DNA from: an uncultured Chloroflexia bacterium
Lineage (GTDB): Bacteria > Chloroflexota > Limnocylindria > Limnocylindrales > CSP1-4
Direction: 5' to 3'
NCBI GenBank assembly: GCA_963712745.1
Contig: CAVQJC010000005.1
Location: forward strand, 96,001 to 160,000
Length of the DNA stretch: 64,000 nt
Below the pieces are notes generated by a model. That model was not told where the DNA came from and did not search any database. It worked only from the letters and a program-made list of their open reading frames with translations. The translations under genes and the position numbers were made by a program. How positions within the stretch are numbered: position 1 is the stretch's first letter; every line of letters begins with the position of its first letter. Below are positions 1-26,595 of the stretch, piece by piece.

Positions 1-1477
1 ACGCGACCGGCAGGACCGAGAGCGCGACGTCGACGAAGCCGGCCTCCTCCACGAGGCGCTGCGCATCGGCATCGCTCCAGTTCCAGACGCCCCAGGCGTT
101 GCGCGCGCCTGATTCGTCCGTCGCGCCCCAGCCGGGCTTGACGTGCTCGCCCAACGTGAAGACCGCCCGTCCGCCGGGCCGAAGGACGCGACACATCTCC
201 CGCAGCGTGCCCTCGGGGTCGCCGATGTGCTTGAGCACCTCGAGCGAGGTGACGACGCTGAAGCGGCCGTCCTCCCAGGGCAGGTCCGCCGCGTCACCGA
301 GGACGATCTCGGCCGTGCCTGCCGCGATGCGCTTCGACAAACGCTTGCGCGCCATCCTGACCTGGATCTCCGAGATGTCGAGGCCGGCCACGTGGCGGAC
401 GTGCGCCGCATGCTCCGCGAGGAGCCTGCCCGACCCGCAGCCGACGTCGAGGAGCTCATCGTCGGGCCGGAGGCGAAGCTCAGCCGCCATGGCCCGTGTG
501 TATTGCTGCATGGCCGACCCCATCACCCGGGCGCCGACCAACCCGACGGCCCCGCGCGGCTCCCCGAACAAGCGGCTCCAGAACTCCCTGCGATAGCCGA
601 TCGATCGTCCGCCTCGTCGGGTCTTCGCTCGCATCCGCTCCACCCTCGCAGGCGAGGGTGCGGCTTCGGGTCGCAGCTCCGTCGGCAATTCCTGTCCGGT
701 CAGCCAGGCCTCGACCATGCGGACGTGCAGGTCGGGTGCCGTGAGCTGCCAGCAATGCCCCAGACCGGGCGCGTACCACGCCTCGGCGTCCTGCATGACG
801 GCCGCCAGTGCCGCATTGGAGGCTCGGACGCCGAGTCCGTCGAGGTCATCGGTCTCCGCCTCCCCGGCGACGAGGAGCGTCGGGCACGACGCGCCGGTCG
901 CGGCATAGGACCGGAAGGCGTCGGCGACTGTGCCCAGGTACGCCCGGCGCGACGCGGCGCGCACATCCTCCTCGCCCAGGAGTTCACCGAGCCTCCTGAC
1001 CACTGGCCGGGTGTGAAGGAACGGCGTCACCATGACGGTGGCCAGGAGCGTCAGGGCACGCGCGCCCCTCGGGACGATGACTGGGACGCCATCGGTGATC
1101 GCCCGCTGGACGCGGTCGGGGTGGCGGTCCAGCAGGGCATGGATGACCACGCCACCCGAGCAGAGACCGACCACGCTCGCGCGACCCGAAGGGACGTGCG
1201 ACCCGATGAGCGCGGCCACGATGTCCGCCGTCTTCCGCAGCGACGCTGCGGGCAGGTGATTGCTGCGCCCGAACCCAGGCAGATCCGGGGCCAGGCAGTA
1301 GAAGTCGGTGAGGCCCGTCATGTGCGTTCGCCAGAACCGGGCACTCTGGCCGGCCCCGTGGAGGAAGACGACAGCTGGGGACTTCGGGTCGCCAGACGCC
1401 TCCACGTACATGCCATGGGGCCCGGGCTCCGCCTTGCGGACCGTGGCGGAGTGGTCGATCACTTCGGGCGCGCTCAT
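1..1477 (-). CDS. Alpha/beta hydrolase fused in frame to a class I SAM methyltransferase (3' end runs off the window)
   Basis: Not in the ORF track because it is open-ended. Manual translation from ATG 1477 is stop-free: VFLHGAGQS..APDLPGFGRS..GLCSGG..GHCWQ, then LLDVGCGSG..LPWEDGRFSVV..RVLRPGG. Start overlaps the upstream stop (ATGA). Confidence 0.85.
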   Translation of the reverse strand, partial: MSAPEVIDHSATVRKAEPGPHGMYVEASGDPKSPAVVFLHGAGQSARFWRTHMTGLTDFYCLAPDLPGFGRSNHLPAASLRKTADIVAALIGSHVPSGRASVVGLCSGGVVIHALLDRHPDRVQRAITDGVPVIVPRGARALTLLATVMVTPFLHTRPVVRRLGELLGEEDVRAASRRAYLGTVADAFRSYAATGASCPTLLVAGEAETDDLDGLGVRASNAALAAVMQDAEAWYAPGLGHCWQLTAPDLHVRMVEAWLTGQELPTELRPEAAPSPARVERMRAKTRRGGRSIGYRREFWSRLFGEPRGAVGLVGARVMGSAMQQYTRAMAAELRLRPDDELLDVGCGSGRLLAEHAAHVRHVAGLDISEIQVRMARKRLSKRIAAGTAEIVLGDAADLPWEDGRFSVVTSLEVLKHIGDPEGTLREMCRVLRPGGRAVFTLGEHVKPGWGATDESGARNAWGVWNWSDADAQRLVEEAGFVDVALSVLPVA

Positions 1478-2034
1478 GCCACGGACGCCTTGACGGGATC
1501 TGCTCGCTCTGGGGCGCTGGCCACCGCGGTGGATGCCGGTTTGACAGCCCGGATCAGCTGGGACTTGGAGGGCACCGGCAAGACCGAGATGCTGACGTCA
1601 GTGAAGCCCGCCTCCTCGACGAGCCTGGCCGCGTCGGCATCGCTCCAGCACCAGATGCCCAGGCGCTCTGCGTACCCGAGGGGGCCGATCCGAACCACGC
1701 CTGACTGTCGTCGCTCATGGTGATGATCGCCCGGCCACCGGGTGGCACGACGCGGTGCATCTCCGCCAGGACCATGGATGGGTCGGACACGAACTTCATG
1801 GCGTCGAGGGAGGTGATGACGCTGAAGCGACCGTCCTCCCACGGCAGCGACGAAGAGCCTGCCCGAGCCACAGCCGACGTCGAGCAACTCGTCGTCAGCC
1901 TGGAGGTCGAGCTTGGCAGCCATGGAGCGGTAGTACTTGCCCTTCATCGACACCATCATCCGGGCGCCGACCCGTCCGCTCAGGCCGCTCGGCTTTCCGA
2001 AGAATGGGGTCCAGGACCTGCGGCGCAGACCCAT
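1474..2034 (-). pseudogene. Class I SAM methyltransferase with internal deletion and two frameshifts
   Basis: DVGCGSG is followed directly, in another frame, by LPWEDGRFSVITS. About 40 codons present in the paralog at 4794-5471 are missing. The frame returns near 1710. Confidence 0.75.
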
Positions 2035-2053
2035 CGCACGTCCCCCCATGCGC

Positions 2054-2129
2054 ACGGGCCGGGTTCGCCAGTGGCTCCGCGCGGCCCTCAGCGGCCATGG
2101 TCGACAGGCCGCGCGTCATCGCCTCCCGC
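2054..2129 (-). ncRNA. c-di-GMP-II-like riboswitch, variant (copy 1)
   Basis: Minus strand GCGGGAGGCGATGAC-GCGCGGCC..loop ATGGCCGCT..GGCCGCGC-GGAGCCACTGGCGAACCCGGCCCGT shows P1, kink-turn, stem and pseudoknot; ends 20 nt before the ATG. Confidence 0.6.
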
Positions 2130-2225
2130 TACTGACGATTATCCCGTGGCCGCCAAGCCCGGAGTCAGAGTCAGGCGGCTCGCTCGGACAGCCAGGCCAT
2201 CAGCGTCTGGAATCTGCGGCGGCTC

Positions 2226-2432
2226 ACGCTCGCGAACCGCACGATGATCGAGGCCTTCGCCGCTCCGGCCGCCAGGCTCAGGGTCGCGGAGCCTTCGCCG
2301 CTCGAGCCCGAAAGGCTCCCAAAGCATGTGCGCTACCGCTGCGCTGCACCCCGACGAGTTCGTGCGTGCATTGGGTGCACAGCGCGGCTCGAGAGTGATG
2401 CCGAGGGGCCTACAGCGCTCGAACCGCACGAT
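2226..2432 (-). repeat. tRNA-Pro-half att-like element, copy R1 (complete)
   Basis: CGAACCGCACGAT at both ends (2233 and 2420); two GCCTTCGCCGCTC direct repeats; tRNA-Pro 5' half at 2315-2353. Confidence 0.9.
2315..2353 (-). pseudogene. tRNA-Pro(TGG) 5' half only
   Basis: CGGGGTG CA GCGC AGCGGTA GCGC A CATGC TTTGGGA GC: acceptor 5' strand, D arm and anticodon loop; no 3' half follows. Confidence 0.85.
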
Positions 2433-2511
2433 AGCCCTTGGGCGTTCGAGGTGGTGCACCGCGACGGGGCTCACCCTCGCCGATGCAGGTTTCCCGTGGC
2501 GACGAGCGGAC

Positions 2512-4008
2512 TCAGGCGTGCAGGAACTCGGGTTCGACGTGAACTGGTTCACCCCGACTCACCCGGAAGTCGCAGCGTCGGCCGCCTTGCGCGATGGTCT
2601 CGGTGCGGTCGAGCCGCAGGCCCATCGCGGCGAACTGGGGATAGTCGATCCAGCACAGGTACTCGGCGAGCTCGGGGGCACCCTCGTGTTCGAGGTACTT
2701 CACGGCCCCACACTCGATGCAGTCCAGCCCCATCCCCGAGTCGCTCCCGTCGCCTTCGACGACCTCGTACACCCAATCCCCGGGATAGCGGCGTTCCTGG
2801 CTGGTGGCCGCGATGCGTCTCCACAGGTCGACACCCTTCTGGCTCAGGAAACCTCGGCCCTGCAAACGCATCAGCCAGCGCGTCGGGACGGACTGGTAGA
2901 AGCCCACTTCCCCGAGGTGGATGAGGCGGGCCGCTTGCTCGACCGATGCCCCACGCGCCCGGAGGGTTCGGTACATCGCCAGCTTGGCAGCGATCTTGAC
3001 GAGGGTGATGGTGAAGGCGTTCTTGCCGCCGCCGATGTAGGGGATGTCCGGCAGCAGGACCTCGAAGCGCCCGAGCGCCTCTTTGACGATGGCCTCCCCT
3101 GCTGCCTTGCCGTAGGCCTGGGCGAGGGGCTTGCGGAAGGGCCGGAAGTAGAACCTCACCAGCCGCATGAGCCGACCCTTGTGCCTGAGATACCAGAACT
3201 CGGGGCCCATGCGCCGGACCTGCTCGATCTTGGCCGGCGAGGGAGCGGCTTCTCGACGGAGCTCGGACGGCAGCTCTCGTCCGCTGACCCAGGCCTCGAC
3301 CGTGCGGATGTGCAGGTCGGGATCGGCTTTCTGCCAGCAGTGCTTGAGGCCGGGGACATACCAGGCCTCGGCCCGGGGCAGGACCTCGGCCAGGGCGGCG
3401 TTCATCGATCGGACCACGCTCTCCTTCTCGCCGGCGATGAGCAGGGCAGGGCTCGGCGCATCGAGGGCTGCGAACTCCCCGAAGATCTCCCCCACGACGC
3501 GCCCGAACTCCAGGCGTGATGCGACCCGCAGGTCCTCCGGGTCGTGGGTGTCGCGGAAGAACGACTTGAGCGGGCGCGTGTGGATGAATGGCGCCATGGC
3601 AAGCATGCACAGACGCATGATCGCGCGGCCGATGCGCGGCGTGCCAAAGGGGGGCGAGCCGTCGATGACAGCCCGCTCGACGCGCTCGGGGTGGCGATCG
3701 AGCAGGGCGTGGATGTGCAGCCCGCCCGAGGAGATCCCCACGACGCTGGCACGTTTCGCGGGGACGCGCTCCTCGATGAGGCGAGCCAGCAGGTCCGCCA
3801 CGCGCTCCTTGGTCGCCGACCCGAGATGGTTGCTGCGCCCGAAGCCGGGCAGATCCGGCGCCAGGCAGTGGAAGCCAGAGAGCCTGTCCATGTGCTGCCG
3901 CCACTCGCGGCTGCTCTGGCCGGCCCCGTGGATGAAGACGATGGCCGGCGAGCCCGGGGTCCCGGACTCCTCGACATGCAGGCCATCAGGAGAACGCCGC
4001 TCACTCAT
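2512..4008 (-). CDS. Alpha/beta hydrolase fused to an L-2-amino-thiazoline-4-carboxylic acid hydrolase-like domain
   Basis: RBS GGAGGTGA before ATG 4008; FIHGAG, PDLPGFG, GISSGG; C-terminal DCIECG..LCWID..RTETIAQGGRRCDFR. Confidence 0.85.
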   Translation of the reverse strand: MSERRSPDGLHVEESGTPGSPAIVFIHGAGQSSREWRQHMDRLSGFHCLAPDLPGFGRSNHLGSATKERVADLLARLIEERVPAKRASVVGISSGGLHIHALLDRHPERVERAVIDGSPPFGTPRIGRAIMRLCMLAMAPFIHTRPLKSFFRDTHDPEDLRVASRLEFGRVVGEIFGEFAALDAPSPALLIAGEKESVVRSMNAALAEVLPRAEAWYVPGLKHCWQKADPDLHIRTVEAWVSGRELPSELRREAAPSPAKIEQVRRMGPEFWYLRHKGRLMRLVRFYFRPFRKPLAQAYGKAAGEAIVKEALGRFEVLLPDIPYIGGGKNAFTITLVKIAAKLAMYRTLRARGASVEQAARLIHLGEVGFYQSVPTRWLMRLQGRGFLSQKGVDLWRRIAATSQERRYPGDWVYEVVEGDGSDSGMGLDCIECGAVKYLEHEGAPELAEYLCWIDYPQFAAMGLRLDRTETIAQGGRRCDFRVSRGEPVHVEPEFLHA

Positions 4009-4042
4009 CTCGTCACCTCCTACAAGGACGCGAACATGGGGT

Positions 4043-4783
4043 TCACCGTTTTGGCCGAGCAAGGTGGCCGACCCCCACCTCGCGCGCGGCAGCGACGGCG
4101 GCCGCGACACCGTCGGTCCAGGGTTCCCCGTGGCCGGGCAGCAACCAGTGCGCCTCGAGCTCTTCGATGCTCGCGAGCGAGGCCAGCGCTTCATCGGGGT
4201 CGGCAGCGAAGGGACAGATCTGCGGACCACGGCGCTCGGTGATGACCGCGTCCGTCGCCAGCGCGTCGCCCACGAAGAGGGCGTCGTGTTCCGGCGCATG
4301 GAAGGTGACGCTGCCATGCGTGTGTCCGGGTGTGTGGATGACGCGCAGCGCGCCCGGTACGTCGAGCGTCGTGCCCGGGTCGAAGGTGCCGACCTCCATC
4401 AGCGCCGTGGTACGCATCGCGCCGTGACGCATGAGCCACAGCAGATAGTGCAGCAGCGATCGCAGCCGGCGTTCACCCATGCCGGCGCTCGGGTTGCCGA
4501 CCTCGCCCCGGGCCAGGGCAGCATCCAGCTCGTGGATGCTGACGGGCACGTCGCGCTCGGCACGCAATCGTTCGGCGAACCCGATGTGGTCGTCGTGGCC
4601 GTGGGTCAGCACGACGGCGCGAACATCCTCGATCGTGCGGCCCATGGCCGCGAGCTCACCTGGCAGTTCGCCGTAGTACGCGGGCACACCCGCGTCGATG
4701 ATGGTGACCTCGCCAGCTTCCTCGAGGAGATAGCAGCTGACGATCGCTTCGCCGAGCCGATGCAGGGATGGGGCGAGTCGCAT
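4043..4783 (-). CDS. MBL-fold metallo-hydrolase
   Basis: THGHDDH, HTPGHT, GD and PGHG motifs. Confidence 0.92.
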   Translation of the reverse strand: MRLAPSLHRLGEAIVSCYLLEEAGEVTIIDAGVPAYYGELPGELAAMGRTIEDVRAVVLTHGHDDHIGFAERLRAERDVPVSIHELDAALARGEVGNPSAGMGERRLRSLLHYLLWLMRHGAMRTTALMEVGTFDPGTTLDVPGALRVIHTPGHTHGSVTFHAPEHDALFVGDALATDAVITERRGPQICPFAADPDEALASLASIEELEAHWLLPGHGEPWTDGVAAAVAAAREVGVGHLARPKR

Positions 4784-4793
4784 CGGATCGGCC

Positions 4794-5471
4794 TCACGCC
4801 ACGCTCTCAGCCGTCGTGGTTGTCGCCTCGGCCGCTGTTGCCGCCGACTTCACGCCTCGGGCCAGCAGGGCCTTGGAGAACACCGACATCACCGAGACGG
4901 TGACATCGCCGAAGCCGGCCGCCTCCACCAGCCGTTGCGCGGCGTCGTCGGTCCACTGCCACTGGCCGAAGCCGTCCACCACCGCCTCGGTCGACCCTTC
5001 CGGAGCGTACCCAGCCTCACCCATCGTGACCGCCATCCGACCACCCGGGCGCAGGACCCGGTGCATCTCCCGCAGCGTTGCCAGCGGGTCGGGCACGAAC
5101 TTGAGGGCATTGACCGACGTGACCGCGCTGAATCGGTCGTCCTCCCAGGGCAAGTTGTCGGCATCGCCCTTGACGATCTCCGCGGTGCCCGCGGCGATGC
5201 GCTCAGCCAGGCGCCTACGTGCTATCTCGAGCTGCAGCTCCGAGGCGTCGAGGCCGGCGACGAAGCGCACGTGCCCCGCGTGGTCGACGAACAGGGTGGC
5301 CGAGCCACAGCCGACGTCGAGCAGCTCATCGTCCGGCTGGAAGTCCAGCTCCGCAGCGATCTGGGTGTGGAACGGACGGCTGCTCCTCGGCATCAGCCGG
5401 ACGCCGAGCCGCCCAGGCATGCCGTGCGGCACCCCGAAGAACGACATCCACCAGCTTCGGCGCAGACCCAT
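4794..5471 (-). CDS. Class I SAM-dependent methyltransferase
   Basis: LLDVGCGS, GDADNLPWEDDRF, RVLRPGG. Confidence 0.9.
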   Translation of the reverse strand: MGLRRSWWMSFFGVPHGMPGRLGVRLMPRSSRPFHTQIAAELDFQPDDELLDVGCGSATLFVDHAGHVRFVAGLDASELQLEIARRRLAERIAAGTAEIVKGDADNLPWEDDRFSAVTSVNALKFVPDPLATLREMHRVLRPGGRMAVTMGEAGYAPEGSTEAVVDGFGQWQWTDDAAQRLVEAAGFGDVTVSVMSVFSKALLARGVKSAATAAEATTTTAESVA

Positions 5472-5490
5472 CGCACGTCCCCCCATGCGC

Positions 5491-5566
5491 ACGGGCCGGG
5501 TTCGCCAGTGGCTCCGCGCGGCCCTCAGCGGCCATGGTCGACAGGCCGCGCGTCATCGCCTCCCGC
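5491..5566 (-). ncRNA. c-di-GMP-II-like riboswitch, variant (copy 2)
   Basis: Identical to 2054-2129; lies upstream of the methyltransferase. Confidence 0.6.
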
Positions 5567-5662
5567 TACTGACGATTATCCCGTGGCCGCCAAGCCCGGA
5601 GTCAGAGTCAGGCGGCTCGCTCGGACAGCCAGGCCATCAGCGTCTGGAATCTGCGGCGGCTC

Positions 5663-5761
5663 ACGCTCGCGAACCGCACGATGATCGAGGCCTTCGCCGC
5701 TCCGGCCGCCAGGCTCAGGGCCGCGGAGCCTTCGCCGCTCGAGCCTGAAAGGCTCCCAAGC
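5663..5761 (-). repeat. att-like element, copy R2 (arm half only, ends at the anticodon loop)
   Basis: Nearly identical to 2226-2322; similarity stops at ..GGCTCCCAAGC. Confidence 0.9.
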
Positions 5762-6071
5762 GGACACCACTCGCGCGTCGCCGAGCGGCGCGACCTACCC
5801 CACCTTCGTTCCACGTACGATGCGCATGTCCTCCATCTTCGCGAGCCGGTTGAGCGCCCGAAGGAAGCGGCTGGATGCGCTCGCGGCGCCGTGACCGAGA
5901 CGTCCGGTCGCCTTGGCACAGGGGACGAGCGTGCCCCGCTCTGGGCGATCGTCTGCTGTGCTGATCGAAGTGGAGCGGCTCTCCCTACGTGCTCGAGCCG
6001 TCATACGCGACGTGCGCTGACGTGGCACCCAGCGATGACACGACCAACACACGTCGAGCGAGAACGGGTCG

Positions 6072-7296
6072 TCACTGGTCGGCGGCAGCAGCTCCCTCCA
6101 GGGCGACGAGTGCATCTACGAGCGGCTGGACCCCCGGGTCGAGCACCGCGAGGGCACTGAACAGCGCACCGCTGTCGGAGCAGGTGTTGGTGAAGACCAC
6201 GTACGACTCCCCGGTCGTCGGGGTCATGCCCGGCCCAGCCCTCCCAGCCGATGGCCTCGCCCTCGTGCCCGTACTGGTTGCCGAAGCCCTCGGCGAACTG
6301 CATGATGCCGAGGCCATAGGCGAAGATCCCAAGGCCGGCATCGTGCATCTGGAGGCGCTCGGCGGCGAGCTCGTCCGAGAGCAGCGAGCTGCCGCTCATC
6401 GAGGCGGCCCAGATGCCGAGGTCGTCGAGGTCGGAATGCATGCTGCCGCCGATCTGGCCGTAGCTCGCGTTCCAGTCGGTCGTGTCGGTGTCGTCGGGCA
6501 CCGGCTCGGCCCCGTCGCGCACCAACTCGTCCACGCAGGCCGGGCTCATGTAGCCACGGGCGAAGGGCTCGGGCAGGGTGGTGTCGTCGTTGTACGGCAG
6601 CGCGGTGTCAGGCATGCCCAGCGGCTCGGTCAGGCGCTCGGCGACCAGCTCCTGGATGGGCTGGCCGGTGAGGGTCTCGGCGATCTCCTGGAGGATGACG
6701 TAGCCGGTGGTGCTGTAGCCGGGGGTGCCCACGGGCGCCAGGCCGCGCTCCACGCCGTACCCGATGAGCTGCTCCGGGTCCCACTGCGTGTCGGGCGCCT
6801 GGGTCAGCGCCGCCACTGCGGCATCGGGCACGTTCATGTAGTCGGGGATGCCGCTGGTCATGCCCAGCAGGTCACCGATGCTGATGTCGGCCACGTCGGG
6901 GAACTGCTCTGCCAGGGCGGGGTCAGCGTCGGCCACGGTGTCCTCGAGTGCGAGGCTGCCCTCGTCGACGAGCTGCAGGATGATGGCCGCGCCGAAGGTC
7001 TTGCTGATGCTGCCGATGCGGAAGTGGTCGTCGATCGAGGCCGCGCGCCCGTTGGCCACGTCCGCGAGGCCGTACGCCTGCTGGTAGGAGCCGCGCTCGG
7101 GACTCCACAGGCCGACGTAGAAGGCGGGCACCTCGGGGTGCTCCTCCATGACCGCGGCGATGCCGGCATCGATGGCCGCCTGGTCTTCGGCGGACATCGG
7201 CTCGGTCGGTAGCTCCATGTCGGCGGCGACGACCGGGACGACGAGCCCGAGAGCGAGGGTGACGGTGACGGCTGTGGCCATGATGGCTCGAAGCAT
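6072..7296 (-). CDS. Secreted serine hydrolase (beta-lactamase/D-peptidase family) with a +1 frameshift near 6220
   Basis: Signal peptide, FRIGSISK (SxxK), YS, GHEG. The C-terminus continues in ORF 6072..6341 after a 4-base homopolymer. Confidence 0.85.
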
Positions 7297-7452
7297 CGGC
7301 CTCCTCCGGAGAATGCGACTGGGACCTTCAGGCATGCGCTCGGTCGGCGAGCGAATCGGGGCGACGGTAGCACGCGCGTTCTCAGCGAGCGAAAGGGGGC
7401 ATCCGGGCCCCGGGCCCCGGGCCCCGGGCCGATGATCCTCCGGGCGAAGTCG

Positions 7453-7608
7453 ACGCTCGCGAACCGCACGACGATCGACGCCTTCACCGCTCGGCCCGCC
7501 ACGTTCAGGACCCTGGAACCTTCGCTGCTCGAGCCAGAAGCTCCCAAGGCATGGGCGCTACCGCTCCGCTACACCCCAACGAGGTTCGTACGTGGAGAGG
7601 GTACACAG
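7453..7608 (-). repeat. att-like element, copy R3 (tRNA-Pro half at 7540-7578, loop CTTGGGA)
   Basis: ACGCTCGCGAACCGCACGACGATC..GCTCCCAAGGCATGGGCGCTACCGCTCCGCTACACCCCA..AGGGTACACAG. Confidence 0.88.
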
Positions 7609-7609
7609 G

Positions 7610-7900
7610 GACTGCGACTTCGGCGATGGCTGGGAGCACGACGTCGTGGTCGAGGAAATCAGCCCGCAGCGGTCGGACTTGGATGGCCCGATCTGCCTGG
7701 CCGGAAGCATGGCTTGCCCGCCCGAGGATTGCGGGGGGCCAATGGGCTACGAGGACCTGCTTGACGCACTATCGGATCCCGCACATCCCGAGCACGACCA
7801 TCTGCGCGAATGGGCGCCGCCGGACTTCGACCCGACGTTCTTCGACATGGACGAGGCGACCGCCGCCATGCGCTCGGTGCGACCGCTCCAGAGGTGGTGA
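7610..7900 (+). pseudogene. C-terminal fragment of a plasmid pRiA4b ORF-3 family protein
   Basis: DFGDGWEH..CLAGSMACPPEDCGG..GY..HPEH; the N-terminal half is replaced by repeat R3. Confidence 0.8.
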
Positions 7901-7910
7901 TGGACGGCCT

Positions 7911-8327
7911 TCAGGCAGCGAGTCGGAAGGGGTCCTCCACGCGGATGCCGTCGTAGTCGGTGGCATCGTCGAGATCTTCGGACAACACCACTGAACATCC
8001 AAGGGCACGAGCGGCCTCGAGGATCGCCGCGTCCCAGTAGGACACGCCGAAGCGGCTCCGTGTCGCCAGCGCCGCTCGCATCACATCGACACTCGTGACC
8101 TGCACCGAGAACCGACACCAGGCCTCGACCAGTCCGGCTGCCTCGTCGTGGGTGATCGCGTCTTCTCGAGTTGCCCGGGTCGCTTGGACGTAGAACTCCT
8201 GCAGGACCTGCACCGAGAGACCGATCTCACCACCGTCGATGATCTCGTTCGCGATCATCGCTTTGCCCTCCTCCGCCGGGTCGCGTGAGATGGCATACAA
8301 GAGGATGTTCGTGTCAACGAAGCGCAC
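7911..8327 (-). CDS. vapC: PIN-domain toxin (VapC family)
   Basis: FVDTNILLY, QVLQEF, SYWDAAI, SED. Confidence 0.92.
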   Translation of the reverse strand: MRFVDTNILLYAISRDPAEEGKAMIANEIIDGGEIGLSVQVLQEFYVQATRATREDAITHDEAAGLVEAWCRFSVQVTSVDVMRAALATRSRFGVSYWDAAILEAARALGCSVVLSEDLDDATDYDGIRVEDPFRLAA

Positions 8328-8553: not shown

Positions 8554-8572
8554 CGTGTCACAGTAACGCATT

Positions 8573-8589
8573 CTCACAGTATCTGTGAG
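8573..8589. promoter_or_regulatory. Probable TA operator palindrome
   Basis: CTCACAG-TAT-CTGTGAG just upstream of the antitoxin, plus another TCACAG near 8558. Confidence 0.55.
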
Positions 8590-18681: not shown

Positions 18682-19575
18682 ATGCCGAATCGTCCGACCT
18701 GCCTCCGCTTCGTACCGACCGCCTTCATGCTGGTTCTCGCGCTTGGCTCTGCTGCGGTGGCAAGCCAGACTGAGACGCCGCGACCATCCGATGACGCGAG
18801 CCGCTGGCCCACAGCGGCTGAACTACGAGCGACCTTGGTCGGACTCGGTTACGAGTTCCGCGCGGACGGCCTGTCGTCGCCCTGGTCTGGGACCGGCTTC
18901 TGGACTGGGGCACGGTCGGACTTGACCGACTTGCCGTCCGCTTCCGAAGACCGATGGCTGCGAGTCGACTCGCCGGACGAAGCAGCTGCCCAGATCCGGC
19001 TGCTGCTGGCGGACGACGATCGTGTCACCCAACTCCTCGACGTGGGGTCGGTCCTGGGCATCCCGCGACCGGCGCTGGATGAAGCGAGCGCGCTCGTCCG
19101 GGTCAGCGCCGAGTGGACAGACGCACCCGACTGCGCGTTCTTCGAGTGGGAGGTATCCGGTGGCCGGATGGTGCTCTGGCGGGATGGCCTGGCTGGCGAC
19201 TCGGACTTCGAGATCGACTTCGAGCCGCCGTCCTCGGACCAGTTGGTCGGTGTCGATGCCAGAGCGGTCGACGCGATCCCAGGATCGGCCTCTGAAGCGT
19301 GCGGCGCGGCGCTCACCGTCAAGGCCGGAGATCTGTGGTTCCGTCCCGCGGAGGTGACGGTCGCCAGCTCGGGATCTTCGACCATCAGGCTCGACAACGC
19401 CGGCCGCTTGGTGCACAACCTTACCGTCGACGAGCTGGGGATACAGATCGTGGTGGCGCCCCGAGGTGCGGGCGAGGCCATCCTGGTCGATCCCAGTCCT
19501 GGGGTCTACGAGTTCTACTGCTCGGTCTCGGGGCACCGGGAAGCCGGCATGGTGGGCACACTCATCGTGGAATAG
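18682..19575 (+). CDS. Secreted protein with C-terminal cupredoxin domain
   Basis: Signal peptide; HN..YEFYCSVSGHREAGM type-1 copper site. Confidence 0.85.
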   Translation: MPNRPTCLRFVPTAFMLVLALGSAAVASQTETPRPSDDASRWPTAAELRATLVGLGYEFRADGLSSPWSGTGFWTGARSDLTDLPSASEDRWLRVDSPDEAAAQIRLLLADDDRVTQLLDVGSVLGIPRPALDEASALVRVSAEWTDAPDCAFFEWEVSGGRMVLWRDGLAGDSDFEIDFEPPSSDQLVGVDARAVDAIPGSASEACGAALTVKAGDLWFRPAEVTVASSGSSTIRLDNAGRLVHNLTVDELGIQIVVAPRGAGEAILVDPSPGVYEFYCSVSGHREAGMVGTLIVE

Positions 19576-19632
19576 GAAAGAGGCGCACCGGCTCGTGGCC
19601 AGCGCGCCCCTGACAAAGCGCTTCCAGGATCC

Positions 19633-20790
19633 CTATTGGATGCTGACGAGCCCCCCCGCTCCTGGCGGGCAGCCGGTGCACGTCGAGACGTAGACCGTGC
19701 CATCTTCGGCGATGGCCATCCCGCCGGGCATCGGCAGACCATCGCTGGTGATGAGCTCTGCGGATCCACCTCCAGCGGGGACCTGCCACAGGCCACCCAT
19801 CGGCGGTCCGCCTTCTCCGGCACTCATGAGCCCTTCGTGGGCCATCTCGAGCACGTAGAGCGTGCCATCGGCACCAAACTCCACGTCGATGATATTGGTG
19901 AAGCCGTCGGCATACACGGTGGGGTCCTCCCCAGGTGCGACGCGGAACACCGCGGCGCCGCCCATAGGGAAGGGGAATCCGGTCAACTGGCCGACATAGA
20001 GGGCATCGTCATCGCCGAGCGCCACAGAGGTCGGGACCGGGTCCATCGGGATCATGGGCGGCTCTGCGGCCGGATCGGGCTCCGCTTCAGGGTCGGGCGG
20101 AGCCGGCTGCATGACGACCGGCATGACGGCCAGAGTCGAGATCGAACCCTCAGCATCCACGAGGAGAAGGGTGTTCGCGCCCGCGTCGGCGACGGCCACG
20201 CCGTCGGCTGTCGCCACCATGCCGTTGGCATTGGAGTCGGGCTCGGCGTTCCCCGGCTGGTCGGCGTCGGGGTTCTCGCTCGTCTCGTAGGCGGCCAGGT
20301 CGGCCACGCTCTGGGCCATGCCGTCAGCGTCGATGCGGTAGAGCTGACCCATGCCTGCTCCGGCCCCATCGGGGATGCTTTCGCGGAACTCAGCGGCCCC
20401 CAAGGTCGGGCCCCCGACCAGGAACCAGATGGTCCCGTCGGCATCCACGGTGACGTCGGATGGTCCGATCGCTTCCCCGGCGTCAGAGAGCCCCGAGGCC
20501 AAGCCCTCTACGATGTGCGATGCCTCGCCCCCGGAGACAGCGATGATGCTTCCGCTGGCACCGAAACACATGTTGCCGAGCTCCTCGAGCGTCGCACACG
20601 ACTCGGTACCGCCTGCCCCCGCTTCAGCGATGTAGACCGTGCCATCCGCGCCGATGGCGACGCCGCGCGGCGAGTTGAAACCCCCGGCCACCTCGGTGAT
20701 CGTGGGCCCCTGTGCCGCGGCTGGCGCAGCCACCGCCATGACCATGGCGACCCCCATCGCAATCCCCCTGCCGGTTCCGTGCATGAACAC
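19633..20790 (-). CDS. ScyD/ScyE-family secreted beta-propeller protein
   Basis: PRGVAIG..YIAEAG; ADAGAN; PVPTSV; GQLTGFPF. Confidence 0.85.
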   Translation of the reverse strand: MFMHGTGRGIAMGVAMVMAVAAPAAAQGPTITEVAGGFNSPRGVAIGADGTVYIAEAGAGGTESCATLEELGNMCFGASGSIIAVSGGEASHIVEGLASGLSDAGEAIGPSDVTVDADGTIWFLVGGPTLGAAEFRESIPDGAGAGMGQLYRIDADGMAQSVADLAAYETSENPDADQPGNAEPDSNANGMVATADGVAVADAGANTLLLVDAEGSISTLAVMPVVMQPAPPDPEAEPDPAAEPPMIPMDPVPTSVALGDDDALYVGQLTGFPFPMGGAAVFRVAPGEDPTVYADGFTNIIDVEFGADGTLYVLEMAHEGLMSAGEGGPPMGGLWQVPAGGGSAELITSDGLPMPGGMAIAEDGTVYVSTCTGCPPGAGGLVSIQ

Positions 20791-20931
20791 CTCATCTGGT
20801 CGGTATGGTCGGACCCCGGTAGCTCACCGACAACGCTCATCCGAGGCCGGACATACTGGGGCTCCAACTGGGGCTCTCAGTTTCGAATGTCTACCCCGTC
20901 GGTACACTTTTGACAGCCACCGGGACGGCGG

Positions 20932-21642
20932 TCATGGGCCTTCAGCGTTTCGGCCCTCCGGCCGGTGTGGGGCCTCAGCCATCACGCGCGGCCGAAGCGG
21001 GCCTTCCACGCCGATAGCGGCGCGGATCAGGACCTGCACGGCCCAGTGGACCGCGTAGCCGGCCTCGCGCGCATCGAGGTCGATGTCAGCCTCACGAAGC
21101 CGGCTCCAGGTCTCGCTCCCGAGCAGCAAGCGCACCAACGCAGCCAACTGCCGGGCGGTCGCCGCTTCGACACCATCGGTCTCGGCGATGGCACGCTGCA
21201 CGAGTCTGGTTCGCTCGTCGCGCGTGCGGCCATCGAACCCGGTCATACCAAGCAGTCTGGCCGCGTGCACCAACGGAGCGTGTCTGTCGAACACCTCGAA
21301 CGTTGAGGCGACCACGTCGGGGTTCGAGTCCAGCATGGCCAGGGAGCCGGCCTGGCGCAGCAACTCCCGGTCGAGCTCGCTGGCCTCGTTGTCCCTGATG
21401 GACTCGATGATGGCTTCGCGGTTGGGGAAGTAGCGATAGAGCGTGCGGGTGGACACGCCCGCGGCCGAAGCGAGATCGTGGAAGGTGAAGCCGTCGACAC
21501 CTCGCTCGATGACCAGACGGATGAACTGGGAGCGGAGTTCGCGACGGACCTGCTCGGCCTGTCGCTCACGTAGCGTGAGCGTGCGCTTGCCAGCGCCCTC
21601 GGGTTCAGGATCGGTCCGTCGCTCGTTCGTCTCCCCCGTCAT
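20932..21642 (-). CDS. TetR/AcrR family regulator
   Basis: DLASAAGVSTRTLYRYFPNRE. Confidence 0.92.
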   Translation of the reverse strand: MTGETNERRTDPEPEGAGKRTLTLRERQAEQVRRELRSQFIRLVIERGVDGFTFHDLASAAGVSTRTLYRYFPNREAIIESIRDNEASELDRELLRQAGSLAMLDSNPDVVASTFEVFDRHAPLVHAARLLGMTGFDGRTRDERTRLVQRAIAETDGVEAATARQLAALVRLLLGSETWSRLREADIDLDAREAGYAVHWAVQVLIRAAIGVEGPLRPRVMAEAPHRPEGRNAEGP

Positions 21643-21801
21643 CGCTTCCGGCCTGCTTCGATGCCGGATCGGCCGGTCGCGGCGGGACCTCGGTGCCTTC
21701 GGCGGTGACCACGAACCCCTCGATCATGCCCCATGCCGAGACCTCCTCCCCTGCTCCCTGGCGCCGGCGCCCGTGCAGTGTGTGTGGCTGGTTGCGCCAG
21801 T

Positions 21802-21820
21802 ATGGCACACTGTGTGTCAT
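21802..21820. promoter_or_regulatory. Putative TetR operator
   Basis: Near-palindrome ATGGCACAC-T-GTGTGTCAT between divergent genes. Confidence 0.55.
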
Positions 21821-21859
21821 GGGGGCAAGACTCGTGCCAAGTCGAAAGGACGCGGACCG

Positions 21860-23335
21860 ATGGACGCAAAGCCAGCGAGCCTGCCCGACCAGTCTTCGTG
21901 GGAACCACCCGCAGCAGGTGTGTACACACGCTCGCTTCGCTTTGGCGAGTGGATCTCCGAGCCTGTCACCCCGCTCTTCGAGTCGTGGCTCCTGAGCCGG
22001 ATGGAGGAGCGCTTCCACGCGAGCCTTCGGATCCTCATCGGACAGCGTGCCCCACGGCCGTATCACGTCCTCGTCAACGGCTGGTACTACTACTCGCTGA
22101 ACTGGATGAGCGGCGGCGCGTGGTTGCGCAACCTGCCGAGCATGGTGATGACAGGGCTTCGTTCGCCGCGACACCTCGCCGGCATCATCCCTCCCACCGT
22201 CAAGTACAGCATCCCGGTCACCGAACGTGTCTGGCGGGAGGACGTCCAGCCTCGGTATCGGGACGCCGTTGCCCGGGCTGACGAGCAGGTGGAGAGCCTC
22301 CCCGATGAGGATCTGCCCCAACTCATCGACGACCTCTCGGACCTCGCGGGCGACTACTTCACCTCGATGGCCTCGTTTGGAGGCGCCGCCTACAAGATGG
22401 AGATGAACCTCGCCCGCTTCTATCGACGGCACCTGGCGCCGTCCCTCGGCGGCAGTCACCTGTCACTCCTGGTGGGTCTCGAAGCGCCCACAGGTCCCGA
22501 CAGCCACGCGGTGGCGTCGCTGGATTGGTGGTTCGAGCCCTCCGGGCAGCAGTCCGCACCCCCAGCCTTCCCCGGCCATCACGCCCGTGTCGTGGCCAAC
22601 CGAGAAGCAGCCGAGAACGCCGCGTTCGCCGCACTCGCCGCATCGCCCCGGCGCCTCGAGGACTTTCGCAGGCTGCTGTCGGAGGCACAGCGCCTGGTGC
22701 CGCTGCGGGAAGCGCAAGCTCGCGAGCTGACCCTGTCCTGGCCAGCGATGAGGCGCGCCGTGCTCCGTATCGGCCAGCACCTGGTGGCCAAGGCGATGAT
22801 CCCCGCACCTGACGATGTGTTCTTTCTGCGGCGGACCGAGGTACTCGATGGCATGGCCGCGGATGCTCCTGCGGCAGTGGACGCGGCCGGCCGTCGAGAG
22901 CTGCGCAAGGCGCAGGCAGCGCTGCTACCGCCGCTGCATGTCGGCCGTATGGGCGCGGGGATGCGACGGATGATCGAGACGTTCCCGCGGTTCGTGGGCG
23001 CCGTTCCCGCCGATCAGGCGATCATCTCCGGGACCCCGGTGTCGCCGGGGCGTGCCACCGGCATGGTCCGAGTCATCCGCGGACCTGCGGACTTCGACCA
23101 GTTGCAGCAGGGTGAGATCCTCGTCGCACCCCTGACTGCTCCGGCCTGGACACCGCTCTTCCTGCGGGCTGCGGGGGTGGTGACCGACGTCGGGAGCGCC
23201 GCTTCGCACGCATCGATCGTCGCGCGCGAATACGGGATCCCCGCCATCGTCGGCTGTGGGGATGCGACCTCGCGCCTCGAGACGGGAATGGCAGTGATGG
23301 TGGACGGAACCACCGGCAACGTAGAGAAGGTCTGA
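21860..23335 (+). CDS. PEP-utilizing enzyme phosphohistidine-domain protein (no ATP-grasp domain)
   Basis: GEILVAPLTAPAWTP..GSAASHASIVAREYGIPAIVG; EPVTPL near the N-terminus; DDVFFL. Confidence 0.85.
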   Translation: MDAKPASLPDQSSWEPPAAGVYTRSLRFGEWISEPVTPLFESWLLSRMEERFHASLRILIGQRAPRPYHVLVNGWYYYSLNWMSGGAWLRNLPSMVMTGLRSPRHLAGIIPPTVKYSIPVTERVWREDVQPRYRDAVARADEQVESLPDEDLPQLIDDLSDLAGDYFTSMASFGGAAYKMEMNLARFYRRHLAPSLGGSHLSLLVGLEAPTGPDSHAVASLDWWFEPSGQQSAPPAFPGHHARVVANREAAENAAFAALAASPRRLEDFRRLLSEAQRLVPLREAQARELTLSWPAMRRAVLRIGQHLVAKAMIPAPDDVFFLRRTEVLDGMAADAPAAVDAAGRRELRKAQAALLPPLHVGRMGAGMRRMIETFPRFVGAVPADQAIISGTPVSPGRATGMVRVIRGPADFDQLQQGEILVAPLTAPAWTPLFLRAAGVVTDVGSAASHASIVAREYGIPAIVGCGDATSRLETGMAVMVDGTTGNVEKV

Positions 23336-23501
23336 ATCGGAGCTGGCGGACTGCCAGGGATTGATCGGACCGCCCAGGCTCGCGAACCACCTGATGACAG
23401 CAGACCGATCGATCTTGCATAGGTCATGCAACGGGCTCGCCTGGTCTCTCGAGCAGCGTCGGCGGGATCGAGGAATGACGGTGACCGATGGAGGAGCGGG
23501 C

Positions 23502-23789
23502 TCAGGCGGGGGCCGCGGCGAGCACGACTCCGATCACTACGGCCGTGGCAGTACCGGCCACCATCCAGAGCATGCGGCCGCGCGGGAGCAGCGGCTCGGA
23601 GACCACCACCCGCTGGAAGTGGGTCTCGTACTCGGTGCCTCGATAGCGCTCGGTGAACGACTGGCTGCTGGGCTTGGTGATGCCGGACCGGTCGGCCGGG
23701 ATAGTGGTGATCCGGTGCTGGTTCTCGAGGATGCGGGTGCGCAGCGACGGATAGGTACGCGCGAGCGACATGGGTTCTGACTCCTGCAT
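23502..23789 (-). CDS. Small hypothetical membrane protein
   Basis: Short ORF with a C-terminal hydrophobic helix. Confidence 0.4.
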   Translation of the reverse strand: MQESEPMSLARTYPSLRTRILENQHRITTIPADRSGITKPSSQSFTERYRGTEYETHFQRVVVSEPLLPRGRMLWMVAGTATAVVIGVVLAAAPA

Positions 23790-24189
23790 CAGGTGGAGAG
23801 GTCCTGGATGCCTGCTCGGGAGACGAGCCTTGAAGGCGTCTGCCGACAGTTGTAGCAGCGAACCGGGACAGAGGTAAGCCCCACCAACTACGCCCAACCG
23901 GGACACACTGCCCAATCTGCTGGGACTGTCGTCATCCCCCCGGTTACCTCTGCCAGCCTCCTGGCGTGCCGAGGGCTCGCAGCACTCCCAGAGGCGCCTC
24001 AAGCTCGCCAGCCAGGACCATCACTCGAGGGACGGCGCCTCACGCTGCCGGTGGTGAAGAGCTCGACGAGGATCGGATCGACCTGGTCGAACTCGTCAGC
24101 GTTCACGACGTCGTCGACCATGTCGTGCTCCTGCGCATGGCATCAGCAGGCTTCATCGTCGAGTTGGCGGCACAGACCCTCCGGCAGCC

Positions 24190-24420
24190 CTACTCCGACG
24201 ACAGCATCTCGGCGAACGGGGCGAACACCGGGTCGATCGCCCCCAGCGCCTTGGCGACCACCCCGAGGTCCGAGCAGGTGGTCGTGAAGGCGACCGCGCT
24301 CAGGCCGCTATCGGGGTCCTGGCCGACCAGGCCACCCAGCCGATGGCCTCGCCTTCGTGACCGACCAGGTCGCCGAGCTTCATGATGCCGAGGCCGTACT
24401 GCAGATCGTGACCGGACGGG
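24190..24420 (-). pseudogene. C-terminal fragment of a serine hydrolase (paralog of 6072-7296)
   Basis: YGLGIMKLGDLVGHEGEAIGW../DPDSGLSAVAFTTTCSD, with a frameshift. Confidence 0.8.
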
Positions 24421-24588
24421 TCGATGTCAGGTCATTACGAATTCTCTACTGTGTTGACGCAGCGGCGCCGGCTCATCACCTTTGGTCCGTCCGTTGTGCG
24501 GAAGAGGCACGGGGACGATGACAAGGACAGTCGAGGATTCGTCGGCCGGCCCGACGAATGGCGGGGGCCATGCCGTGTGGAGGACACC

Positions 24589-24906
24589 ATGGGCTTCGGA
24601 TTCCACTACCACAAGATCCTCCGGGCAGGCGAGGCCTCCGAACTCAAGCGTCGCCATGAGCATGCGCGTGCGCTCAAGGAGAGTGCGAGGTGGACGCCGG
24701 AACCAAGACGACGAGACGCGATGAAGGACCGCATCACGGCCCTACGTGGACGTCGGGAACCCCAGTTCGATCTGCCGCCGTCGCCGACTGCCGATGGGCA
24801 CGAACTGACCCAGGCCATATGTCGTCTTGGCGATGGGTCGATGGGCCGCATCGCTATCGTCCGCCAGTCCGCCGAGGAGTGGACGGCTGTTTGCGTCAAG
24901 CCTTGA
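24589..24906 (+). CDS. Hypothetical protein
   Basis: GGAGG RBS; C-terminal CRLGDGSMGR..WTAVCV. Confidence 0.6.
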   Translation: MGFGFHYHKILRAGEASELKRRHEHARALKESARWTPEPRRRDAMKDRITALRGRREPQFDLPPSPTADGHELTQAICRLGDGSMGRIAIVRQSAEEWTAVCVKP

Positions 24907-24907
24907 C

Positions 24908-24980
24908 TCGTGCGTGGATAGGGTACACAGCGCGCTTCGATAGCAGCAGATGCGAGGCCTACAGCGTTCGAACCGCGCAA
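24908..24980 (-). repeat. att-like element remnant R9 (promoter arm only)
   Basis: TCGTGCGTGGATAGGGTACACAGCGC..GGCCTACAGCGTTCGAACCGCG matches 2360-2428. Confidence 0.82.
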
Positions 24981-25145
24981 CCATGACCGATCGCCTTAGG
25001 TCGATGGGGGCCAGCGTGCGGTCTACGGGTCTCCATCGAGGAAGCCGGCCCCTGACCACGGCCAGCTGATCAGGCTCATCAAGCTGCGGGGAGTCACCAG
25101 AATCGGTGATCACTTCGAATCGGGCTTCCGCTCAGCCGCCAGCTG

Positions 25146-25623
25146 GGCCATGGCGTCACCCACCCGCCGGCGCGGACGCAGACCATGGAGACCGGTCACC
25201 GAAAGCGCATGGTGCGGGCCGCCGTCGGTAGTTATCAGCCTGGCTCGGCCCAGGCCTCCTCAGCCTCGGTCTCCATCTTCTTGAGGCGCGTGTAGTAGTC
25301 CGGGAATTCCTTGAGATGTGCGAGCGCGATCTTGCCCGTCACGATCGGATCGCTGCCGCTCACGTTGGTCTGCGAGTCGTGCGTTCCGTGCTCCAGTTCG
25401 ACATCGAGGCCCTCTCGGAACTGATCCACGTCGAATGGGCTGGTGTCCCAGTCGATACCGATCTCAGTCCCGATCCGACGGGCTTCTTCGGCGGTGAAGT
25501 GTTCGTCCGTTGTCATCGATCCTCCTCAAGAGCCAGCAGGACGCGTGACTCACTCGAGCAGCGTACTACCCGGGTATCCGTGCTCGGGCCGACGGGGGTG
25601 CGAGTCCCCCTGGATGAGGGTCG
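25146..25623. repeat. ~478-bp near-exact duplication, copy B
   Basis: Matches 12984-13461. Confidence 0.92.
25235..25516 (-). CDS. DUF5661-like small protein (second copy)
   Basis: One amino acid different (K/E) from 13073-13354. Confidence 0.85.
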   Translation of the reverse strand: MTTDEHFTAEEARRIGTEIGIDWDTSPFDVDQFREGLDVELEHGTHDSQTNVSGSDPIVTGKIALAHLKEFPDYYTRLKKMETEAEEAWAEPG

Positions 25624-25742
25624 GCTTTGTCTCGCGCCTAGAATCGAAGGAGGGCCGGACAGCACTCGCAAGACGCGGCTCACGGTGGCGAGGACGAGAG
25701 TCCTGGTCTCGGGAACGGACCGGCCTCGGGGGAGGTGGAGCG

Positions 25743-26444
25743 GTGAGGACGATCATCAAGGTCTTGGCGCTGCTCGGAGTCGGCATACTGCTCTGGTTCC
25801 GCGGGCGCGATTGGGCAGGCTACGTAGGCGATCACGTCGGCGTCGGGCGCAAGACGACCGGACCCATCGCGCGGGCCCTCTACAGACACGACCCGTGGCA
25901 CCGCACGGCATACCCCATGGCCCTCGAGAAGCTGGCGCTGGCCCCGGATGACACGTACCTCGACATCGCTTGTGGAGGGGGGACGCTGCTCTCACTGGCG
26001 CTCGAAACGGTGGACCGGGCGGCGGGCCTCGATCACAGCCCCGCCGCCGTCGAGGTAGCGCGGGAAACGAACGCCGCGGCGCTCGAGGCGGGTCGGCTCG
26101 AACTGCGGGAAGGCGACGCCGCGGACCTGCCGTGGGATGACGGCTCGTTCGACGCCGTCTCCAATCTCAACACCATCCACACGATGCAGGAGCCACGGCC
26201 TCTGCTACGCGAGGCCCATCGGGTCCTGAAGCCCGGTGGTCGGTTCCTGCTCATCACCCAGTCGGCCGAGTCGCTCGAAGGCCCGATGTGGGGATGGATG
26301 CGACGCTTGCTGGTGCTCCACGGCGACAGCGAACTGGCATCGATGCTGCGGGATGTCGGATTCTCGGAGGTGGAGGCCTACTCACCGGACGGGGATCGCC
26401 AGGTCGGCTACGGCATCAAGGCGACCGTCGAGGCCAGCGCGTAA
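25743..26444 (+). CDS. Class I SAM methyltransferase with N-terminal TM helix
   Basis: LDIACGGG, GDAADLPWDDGSFD, RVLKPGG. Confidence 0.88.
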   Translation: MRTIIKVLALLGVGILLWFRGRDWAGYVGDHVGVGRKTTGPIARALYRHDPWHRTAYPMALEKLALAPDDTYLDIACGGGTLLSLALETVDRAAGLDHSPAAVEVARETNAAALEAGRLELREGDAADLPWDDGSFDAVSNLNTIHTMQEPRPLLREAHRVLKPGGRFLLITQSAESLEGPMWGWMRRLLVLHGDSELASMLRDVGFSEVEAYSPDGDRQVGYGIKATVEASA

Positions 26445-26515
26445 GCCCGCGGAGACAAGCCTCTTGGGCGCCGCCGCTGCGACGAGTTCCCCGCCAGGGG
26501 CGCACTGCGCGACCG

Positions 26516-26595
26516 ACGCTCCTCGATCGCACGATGATCGAGGCCTTCACCGCTTCGGCCGTCACGCTCGGAAGGCGGCACCTTCGCCACTCGAC
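26516..26595 (-). repeat. att-like element remnant R10 (arm half)
   Basis: ACGCTCCTCGATCGCACGATGATCGAGGCCTTCACCGCT..CCTTCGCCACTCGA. Confidence 0.8.

Follow-up and report, generated by a model that had tools for sequence, protein, structure and literature searches.

Half-tRNA-Pro modules and integrase-less gene cassettes form a polar array in an uncultured Chloroflexia bacterium

Introduction

What lines up ten partial copies of one tRNA junction on a single strand, with unrelated genes between them? The question is raised by a stretch of 64,000 nucleotides, here called the window, from an uncultured Chloroflexia bacterium (GenBank assembly GCA_963712745.1, contig CAVQJC010000005.1, positions 96,001 to 160,000). 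The assembly under study, G000, is a metagenome-assembled genome (MAG), 84.6% complete with 5% contamination, and the window is G000:C5:96001-160000 of the 377-kb contig C5; coordinates without a contig name are those of the window. The repeat copies, R1 to R10, lie on the minus strand, and downstream of a copy means lower coordinates. From a model in which each integrating element donates the 5′ half of tRNA-Pro, an initial annotation of the window had predicted an intact tRNA-Pro to the left, with the newest cassettes beside it and a chronological record like that of CRISPR or integron arrays. We conclude that the window is, on balance, the older, distal half of a cassette array anchored on the sole tRNA-Pro(UGG) gene, and we give slightly more credence than doubt to serial site-specific integration of integrase-less, 5′-half-donating cassettes by some recombinase acting in trans.

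The array and its intact tRNA gene

ARAGORN placed the sole tRNA-Pro(tgg) gene of the assembly at C5:73679-73753 on the minus strand and found no tRNA in the window. The gene is preceded by the same upstream arm as the repeats (profile positions 16-140). The predicted intact tRNA thus exists on the predicted side, although it does not adjoin the window: it lies 22.2 kb to the left of window position 1, with eleven additional module copies in between. The whole array spans 48.9 kb (C5:73.7-122.6 kb) and comprises 21 co-oriented copies with E no higher than 0.01, or 22 if the marginal R8 is counted, the ten copies of the window making up its distal half. When the assembly was queried with 38 nt of the tRNA-Pro 5′ half, 22 places were found, against one for the 3′ half, so the asymmetry is real and not a matter of chance.

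The copies were delimited with a profile built from 12 of them and rerun on the window without filters; eight seeds came from the tRNA-near half and four from the far half, so near copies are somewhat favoured. All ten repeat copies were recovered on the minus strand at the places where they had first been seen, and the unfiltered search of the window from 26.6 to 64 kb returned no further copy.

2219-2442, minus strand: R1, full module (profile positions 10-234, E 9e-67)
2354-2442, minus strand: upstream arm of R1
2315-2353, minus strand: tRNA-Pro 5′ half of R1
2317-2323, minus strand: anticodon loop of R1
2219-2314, minus strand: downstream arm of R1
5655-5759, minus strand: R2, downstream arm alone (profile positions 131-235)
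7449-7632, minus strand: R3, upstream arm shortened, tRNA part kept (profile positions 48-231)
8815-9030, minus strand: R4, full module (profile positions 11-230)
10903-11106, minus strand: R5, nearly full module (profile positions 28-235)
12671-12897, minus strand: R6, full module (profile positions 9-235)
14072-14187, minus strand: R7, tRNA half with stubs of both arms (profile positions 74-189)
17922-17953, minus strand: R8, marginal 32-nt remnant, end of the downstream arm (E 0.016)
24907-24988, minus strand: R9, upstream arm alone, cut just 5′ of the tRNA start (profile positions 13-93)
26514-26599, minus strand: R10, downstream arm alone (profile positions 143-229), the most distal copy detected

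The profile agrees with the initial annotation that R1, R4 and R6 are full length and that R2 is cut at the anticodon, and in each of R8-R10, which had been described as short remnants, it finds one arm or part of one; R5, which had not been called full, is nearly so. R2 begins within the anticodon loop (TTGGGAGCC...), the sequence upstream of it is unrelated, and its downstream arm is 98% identical to that of R1. R8 also matches repeat family D12 (82% over 39 nt).

Read on the minus strand, a module of about 230 nt consists of an upstream arm, the tRNA 5′ half as far as the anticodon loop, and a downstream arm. The upstream arm (about 90 nt) opens with a 20-nt motif and carries a near-invariant TACCCT 19 nt before the tRNA start. 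The tRNA part is the first 39 nt of tRNA-Pro(UGG) and ends two bases beyond the anticodon loop. In the downstream arm (about 95 nt) the first third occurs in two sequence types, one 13-nt motif is present twice, and the 20-nt motif from the start of the upstream arm recurs, slightly altered, at the end. Near-invariance extends furthest in two blocks, the 39-nt tRNA half and the final 45 nt or so of the downstream arm. Since the functional tRNA is itself preceded by the upstream arm, with variable cassettes beyond, this arm would hold the tRNA promoter. In three array-free relatives the upstream arm is absent or cut before the tRNA (profile starts 74-96).

Polarity and decay along the array

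The module is present in several genomes of the same genus, and other genomes of that genus have the tRNA only. In relatives, eight of eight loci with an intact tRNA-Pro(tgg) have all their other copies upstream of that gene, and the same is seen in 5/5 metagenome contigs with an intact tRNA; with G000 included, the polarity holds in 14 of 14 loci, related genomes being non-independent samples. An 18-nt junction motif was found at 39 loci of a species-representative genome collection, 31 of which bear titles naming uncultured Chloroflexia, Chloroflexota or Candidatus Limnocylindrales; the remaining eight comprise seven without a module and one, titled Anaerolineaceae, with a module. Modules were present in 64 of the 72 metagenome loci bearing the motif.

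Decay was analyzed on 20 copies, the intact gene being left out. The farther a copy lies from the tRNA, the lower are its profile score (Spearman -0.65, p 0.002; permutation p 0.0017, n 20) and its coverage (rho -0.57, p 0.008). Full copies near the tRNA and fragments farther away are also seen in the relatives G021 and G009, as in G000; G014 does not have this pattern.

Junctions and cassette exchange

At five junctions the module gives way to unrelated DNA within the anticodon loop or at its edge: R2 and those at C8:96154, C10:7254, C17:5374 and C16:15058. The Pro modules at C8:96154-96243, C10:7254-7302 and C17:5374-5490 end at the 5′ edge of the loop and pass into a common alternative arm, with a common stretch of about 130 nt on C10 and C17. 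On C8 this arm is interrupted by an IS110-family gene (C8:94.7-96.1 kb) with an in-frame stop; this gene is inserted inside the alternative arm and is not the cause of the C8 breakpoint. Public runs yielded short Logan contigs only and no usable joint, and a loose end at L067:7066 has the alternative arm at the crossover position. A joint in L067 from 3787 to 11234, which skips the two tRNA-nearest cassettes and was seen in X2 and X3 of one study, was not counted, because its shorter side has only 33 letters and these fall in look-alike repeats.

To compare modules we used 37 distinct full copies from 13 genome labels. The flank is common to both members upstream in 25 pairs and downstream in 41, and in no pair on both sides, so the cassettes have recombined at the modules. 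Module identity is 0.774 within genomes versus 0.778 between them, and the nearest-neighbour module belongs to the same genome in 2 of 31 cases; this lack of within-genome homogenisation speaks against duplication in place and gene conversion.

Cassettes are also common to different genomes. Between G013 and G014, one cassette, its upstream arm and its tRNA half match at 97.6-99% identity, against 74% in the chromosomal flank; identity drops past the anticodon loop, and the cassettes between this joint and the tRNA differ, which is how arrays should look if they gain cassettes at the tRNA end and exchange them across species. Over 2.5 kb, the sole cassette of G010 matches the R2 cassette at 88% identity, the homology beginning at the crossover position. 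A toxin-antitoxin cassette of the PIN/RHH type (7906-8593) is 95% identical to a cassette of G009, with chromosomal flanks at 71-84%, which suggests a recent transfer between species.

A simple series of events could produce this arrangement. The incoming element would be a small circle of 1-4 kb without an integrase, carrying an attP-like site of about 230 bp made up of the upstream arm with the tRNA promoter, the tRNA 5′ half and the downstream arm. Recombination in the anticodon loop would join the resident 3′ half to the promoter and 5′ half brought in by the element and so rebuild the tRNA, and the old promoter and 5′ half would be displaced upstream, to stand in front of the new cassette and perhaps transcribe it. 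Repeated rounds would make the array grow at its tRNA end and leave old junctions to decay at the far end. The initial annotation's model of 5′-half donation fits the polarity, the anticodon-loop breakpoints and the pair G013/G014, in which the distal cassette is common and the tRNA-proximal ones differ; it is weakened by observations that follow.

The recombinase and competing explanations

A series of results weighs against serial integration, first among them the lack of a recombinase gene. Pfam assigned none of the 52 array open reading frames (ORFs) to a recombinase family (0/52), and a six-frame search of the whole of C5 gave no match to PF00589 or PF00239. The relative G009, 90% complete, has only two tyrosine recombinase matches, and these are a Xer-like pair. 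Free forms were not seen either: there was no circular contig, terminal repeats occurred in 0/72 metagenome loci, and two motif scans yielded no viral contig with the junction. No sigma-70-type promoter was recognized in the upstream arm, a scan for promoter and terminator consensus sequences giving 0 sites. Moreover, identity to the consensus has no significant trend with distance (rho -0.22, 15 copies of at least 150 nt), and the count of mismatches in the tRNA half has none either (rho +0.34, n 16). Truncation rather than substitution thus makes up the gradient, and the expected correlation of decay with position holds for completeness and profile score but not for point divergence.

The array has also been rearranged in other ways, as is evident from duplicated segments of up to 99.4% identity. 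A 481-bp segment with DUF5661 is present at 12981-13461 and 25143-25623 (99.4%, 12 kb apart, an upstream arm beside both), and a 1225-bp segment is duplicated at 93.6% identity, 9.4 kb apart. Given these duplications, cassette order is only roughly the order of arrival, and the chronological record that had been proposed survives as an approximation. The two types of the proximal downstream arm are unlinked to the methyltransferase cassettes behind them. Over all pairs, which are not independent, a common upstream flank does not raise upstream-arm identity (p 0.61) and a common downstream flank raises downstream-arm identity marginally (p 0.06); downstream-arm identity is raised when the upstream flank is common (p 4e-5). 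Because the arm types do not travel with the cassettes, further crossovers must occur, most simply homologous ones in the two near-invariant blocks.

These last points raise the question of whether homology alone would do. Modules might be mere homology anchors at which cassettes are swapped, duplicated, deleted or Campbell-inserted by RecA-type recombination after DNA uptake, the tRNA end being the place where homology stops. The 39-nt tRNA half and the last 45 nt or so of the downstream arm would then be switch points between junctions, and unlinked proximal arms, intra-array duplicates and the lack of a recombinase gene would all be expected. We regard this as unlikely: it leaves unexplained how the module originated, why its arms are conserved across species whose coding flanks are 74-82% identical, why five junctions with unrelated DNA fall at the anticodon loop, and why copies are complete close to the tRNA but fragmentary at a distance, and it sits poorly with the lack of homogenisation within genomes.

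Where, then, could a recombinase be encoded? Six-frame matches in G000 place tyrosine recombinases on C4 (two), C12 and C17 only, and a resolvase on C1 only. The C4 pair, the only strong tyrosine recombinases, score best as XerC and XerD, below the equivalog cut-offs, and the C12 protein is a divergent recombinase of 586 aa. We considered use of XerC/XerD at dif (the IMEX class) and set it aside, the dif-like 28-mer being unlike the crossover region by eye. With the dif-like pattern ATAA, six bases, TTAT, the assembly has one such 28-mer, at C10:83909-83936, where chromosome dimers may be resolved. The array contigs of G009, G010, G014, G021 and G022 had no recombinase match, apart from a weak one on the 968-kb array contig of G010, below the family cut-off and 107 kb from the array. 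None of 150 metagenome ORFs, the longest of 175 called from 70 loci, matched a recombinase at E 1e-6. In G041 a tyrosine recombinase that seemed to lie near the array is on another contig. Because G000 is an incomplete MAG, the gene may be missing from the assembly.

The same incompleteness would suit a different history, in which the array is what remains of ordinary tandem islands of the 5′-fragment-displacing minority class, each of which once encoded a tyrosine integrase of its own; later deletions would have removed these genes and most others, leaving cargo and att scars. Precedents exist: Islander has 159 of 3919 islands with a 5′ fragment of the tRNA gene (tDNA) and recognises tandem arrays, and the tycheposon preprint (bioRxiv 10.1101/2020.12.28.424599) describes elements that integrated one after another at a single tRNA, together with degenerate remnants and dispersed partial tRNAs. 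Yet no integrase remnant was found on the 377-kb C5, on the array contigs of five relatives or among the 150 metagenome ORFs, and dozens of modules retain both arms intact at spacings down to about 1 kb. We consider such decay improbable, somewhat more so than homologous exchange, and retain serial integration with a recombinase in trans as the favoured reading, while noting that the missing recombinase, the proximal downstream arm that does not travel with its cassette and the intra-array duplications remain points against the 5′-half-donating model.

Cassette content

Between modules lie cassettes of 1-4 kb with unrelated cargo, successive copies as far as R7 being spaced about 0.7-4.1 kb from start to start. 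Gene calls are crude, made from third-position G+C.

1-2218, minus strand: cassette downstream of R1, with a riboswitch (2049-2135), an ORF without family (1474-2055) and an alpha/beta-hydrolase and methyltransferase fusion ORF (2-1477) continuing left of the window
2443-5654, minus strand: cassette downstream of R2, with a riboswitch (5486-5572), a methyltransferase (4794-5492), a metallo-beta-lactamase-fold ORF (4043-4783) and a hydrolase and ATC_hydrolase ORF (2512-4317)
5760-7448, minus strand: cassette downstream of R3, with a serine beta-lactamase-fold protein (6001-7335)
7633-8814, minus strand: cassette downstream of R4, with an RHH antitoxin-like ORF (8314-8733), a PIN toxin-like ORF (7911-8342) and a PRiA4_ORF3 fragment (7592-7900, plus strand)
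9031-10902, mixed strands: cassette downstream of R5, with an alpha/beta hydrolase (9858-10853, plus strand) and a short-chain dehydrogenase (9085-9903, minus strand)
11107-12670, minus strand: cassette downstream of R6, with a DUF1254/DUF1214 protein (11112-12458)
12898-14071, strand not assigned: cassette downstream of R7, with a DUF5661 ORF (13073-13354, minus strand) and a sulfatase-gene fragment (about 13500-14070)
14188-26513, strand not assigned: distal degraded part of the array, with a riboswitch (16507-16590) ahead of a 4Fe-4S ORF (15366-16574), a DUF5661 copy (25235-25516), a methyltransferase (25443-26444, plus strand) and further HTH/cupin, cupredoxin, NHL, TetR and PEP-utilising-domain ORFs

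In the 52 array ORFs, Pfam recognized methyltransferases, alpha/beta hydrolases, a sulfatase, serine- and metallo-beta-lactamase-fold proteins and dehydrogenases, together with Phd/YefM, PIN with RHH, DUF1254/DUF1214, DUF5661 (twice), DUF389 and YecM. Cargo in the metagenome cassettes is equally varied. The stretch at 13500-14070 matches part of another cassette's sulfatase gene (C5:78589-79156) at 84.8% identity and is probably a gene fragment.

Six riboswitch aptamers with the Rfam names c-di-GMP-II-GAG and c-di-GMP-II-GCG lie in the array, at 2049-2135, 5486-5572 and 16507-16590 on the minus strand of the window and at G000:C5:76792-76879, 82644-82728 and 88775-88861 outside it. Five of the six stand about 80 nt behind a module, and most precede methyltransferase cassettes; the aptamer at 16507-16590 has no detected module in front and a 4Fe-4S ORF behind. 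A gene for a GGDEF diguanylate cyclase lies at C5:70455-72299, 1.4 kb downstream of the intact tRNA-Pro.

This layout invites a purely regulatory interpretation, with the module as a captured tRNA promoter and 5′ leader spread by duplication in front of accessory genes and without any role in recombination. Of the 16 modules in which the end of the downstream arm survives, 12 are followed by a co-oriented first called gene (hand count), riboswitches follow modules at about 80 nt, and solitary copies occur outside the array. The module itself, however, gave no sign of such a function: RNAalifold found no conserved RNA structure (covariation term -0.92), Rfam had no match even at E 1, the fold as single-stranded DNA was that of shuffled sequences (z 0.02), and the promoter consensus was missing. 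Nor would regulation explain the strict polarity toward the intact tRNA or a pool of modules that spans species, and we hold this interpretation to be very improbable. A coding role for the module was rejected, single-base alignment gaps disrupting all frames by eye. The co-orientation also counts in favour of serial integration.

Surroundings and other tRNA-half arrays

Downstream of the intact tRNA-Pro lie genes for SRPBCC, DUF2568, GGDEF, WcbI and GSCFA proteins and metabolic genes; on this side only, the locus is syntenic with that of G008. The tRNA-Pro loci of the array-free relatives G007, G017 and G019 have no synteny with it. At the opposite end, just past R10, the stretch 26764-29478 encodes a B12-binding radical SAM protein and an additional paralogue of a ketoacyl synthase. 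The paralogue is about 71-72% identical to the copy in all relatives and to a second G000 copy on C20, and a search of the relatives with the 4 kb right of R10 returned nothing but a paralogous ketoacyl synthase, at about 72%. The region past R10 is non-syntenic with the relatives' arrays, so the island may reach further.

Solitary module copies also occur outside the array. Contigs C1 and C2 of G000 have an identical tRNA gene order (Ala, Ile, Ser, Ser, Arg, Ser, Ser), and the bin probably represents two related strains or contains a duplicated region; solitary modules on other contigs may therefore come from a second strain.

Other tRNA genes of G000 have comparable arrays. On C5 itself, at C5:295866-362286, ten 3′-half copies follow an intact tRNA-Thr(cgt) at a spacing of 1.5-16 kb. 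All of them have a downstream arm of about 90 nt, and their identity declines with distance, starting at 100% and reaching about 90%. The 5′ half of tRNA-Val(gac) occurs at eight places with arms of its own of about 60 and 110 nt, a second module family of the 5′ type, and the 3′ half of tRNA-Gly(tcc) at about eight places. At three loci a Val copy and a Pro module stand 0.3-2 kb apart on opposite strands. The contigs of the partial-copy arrays at tRNA-Val (5′ type), tRNA-Thr and tRNA-Gly (3′ type) have no tyrosine-recombinase match.

C8:73133-94074; C16:1337-1374 and 15325-15362; C9:7136-7173; C10:7833-7909; C20:652560-660458; C15; C11: half copies of tRNA-Val and tRNA-Gly

Discussion

If cassettes are indeed mobilised in trans, the array would be a functional counterpart of the integron on a different type of site, with a tRNA gene rebuilt from its promoter side, in a phylum about whose gene exchange we know almost nothing. 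It would explain how soil and sediment bacteria gather small enzyme genes, toxin-antitoxin pairs and riboswitch-controlled methyltransferases, and it would keep a positional record of acquisitions, blurred and yet comparable between strains. A bolder form of the idea is possible, though we doubt it more than we believe it: integrase-free cassettes with an attP-like site of about 230 nt would constitute a new gene-capture platform of uncultured Chloroflexota, each insertion rebuilding the tRNA and handing the displaced promoter to a cassette, with a recombinase encoded elsewhere serving the whole pool. Given the partial-copy arrays at tRNA-Val, tRNA-Thr and tRNA-Gly, the lineage would then assemble its accessory genome quite generally by this mechanism. 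The concrete question raised is which recombinase recognises a site of about 230 nt with repeated arm motifs around the anticodon loop. Even on plainer readings, the locus is an unusually clean case of the rare class of tRNA integration in which the 5′ fragment is displaced.

Serial insertion at tRNA genes as such is already known from Islander tandem arrays, tycheposons and additive islands (PMC3698932); for this lineage we found no description of such arrays in open-access papers and preprints. Tandem tRNA islands of the Islander/TIGER class resemble the locus in having an intact tDNA at one end, co-oriented displaced fragments, the canonical crossover in the anticodon loop and newer units beside the intact gene. 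Islander accepts tandem arrays only if every member has its own integrase; here, by contrast, some 20 units of 1-4 kb have none, the conserved site measures about 230 nt and has a long arm at either end, and the promoter side of the tRNA is among what is donated. Tycheposons of Prochlorococcus (bioRxiv 10.1101/2020.12.28.424599) share with it serial integrations at one tRNA that push older elements inward, scattered partial tRNAs and adaptive cargo. They are described there with a tyrosine recombinase, replication genes and repeats of about 40 nt, whereas the repeats here are about 230 nt and neither the hallmark tyrosine recombinase nor replication or packaging genes are among the Pfam-scanned ORFs. 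The additive flexible genomic islands of Alteromonas (PMC3698932) are a descriptive category without a defined repeat architecture, and here the joint is a defined composite module.

The likeness to CRISPR and integron arrays that the initial annotation drew holds for polarity and fails for anatomy. As in CRISPR, growth is polar, position approximates age and the distal end degenerates; CRISPR repeats of 20-50 nt with short non-coding spacers are, however, unrelated to repeats of about 230 nt with coding intervals of 1-4 kb. Chromosomal integrons come closer, with their long one-directional arrays of small, mostly co-oriented cassettes without a recombinase of their own, varied cargo including toxin-antitoxin pairs, polar insertion at one end and cassettes common to several species. 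Unlike an integron, the array has no intI or attI beside its first cassette, its sites are not foldable, attC-like palindromes, the insertion point is a tRNA gene that would be rebuilt each time, and a putative promoter stands at every junction. By analogy, the locus is integron-like in function and, by its defining features, not an integron. What is unusual is the combination of about 20 small integrase-less units, a long composite site that includes the tRNA promoter side, and a pool of modules that crosses species.

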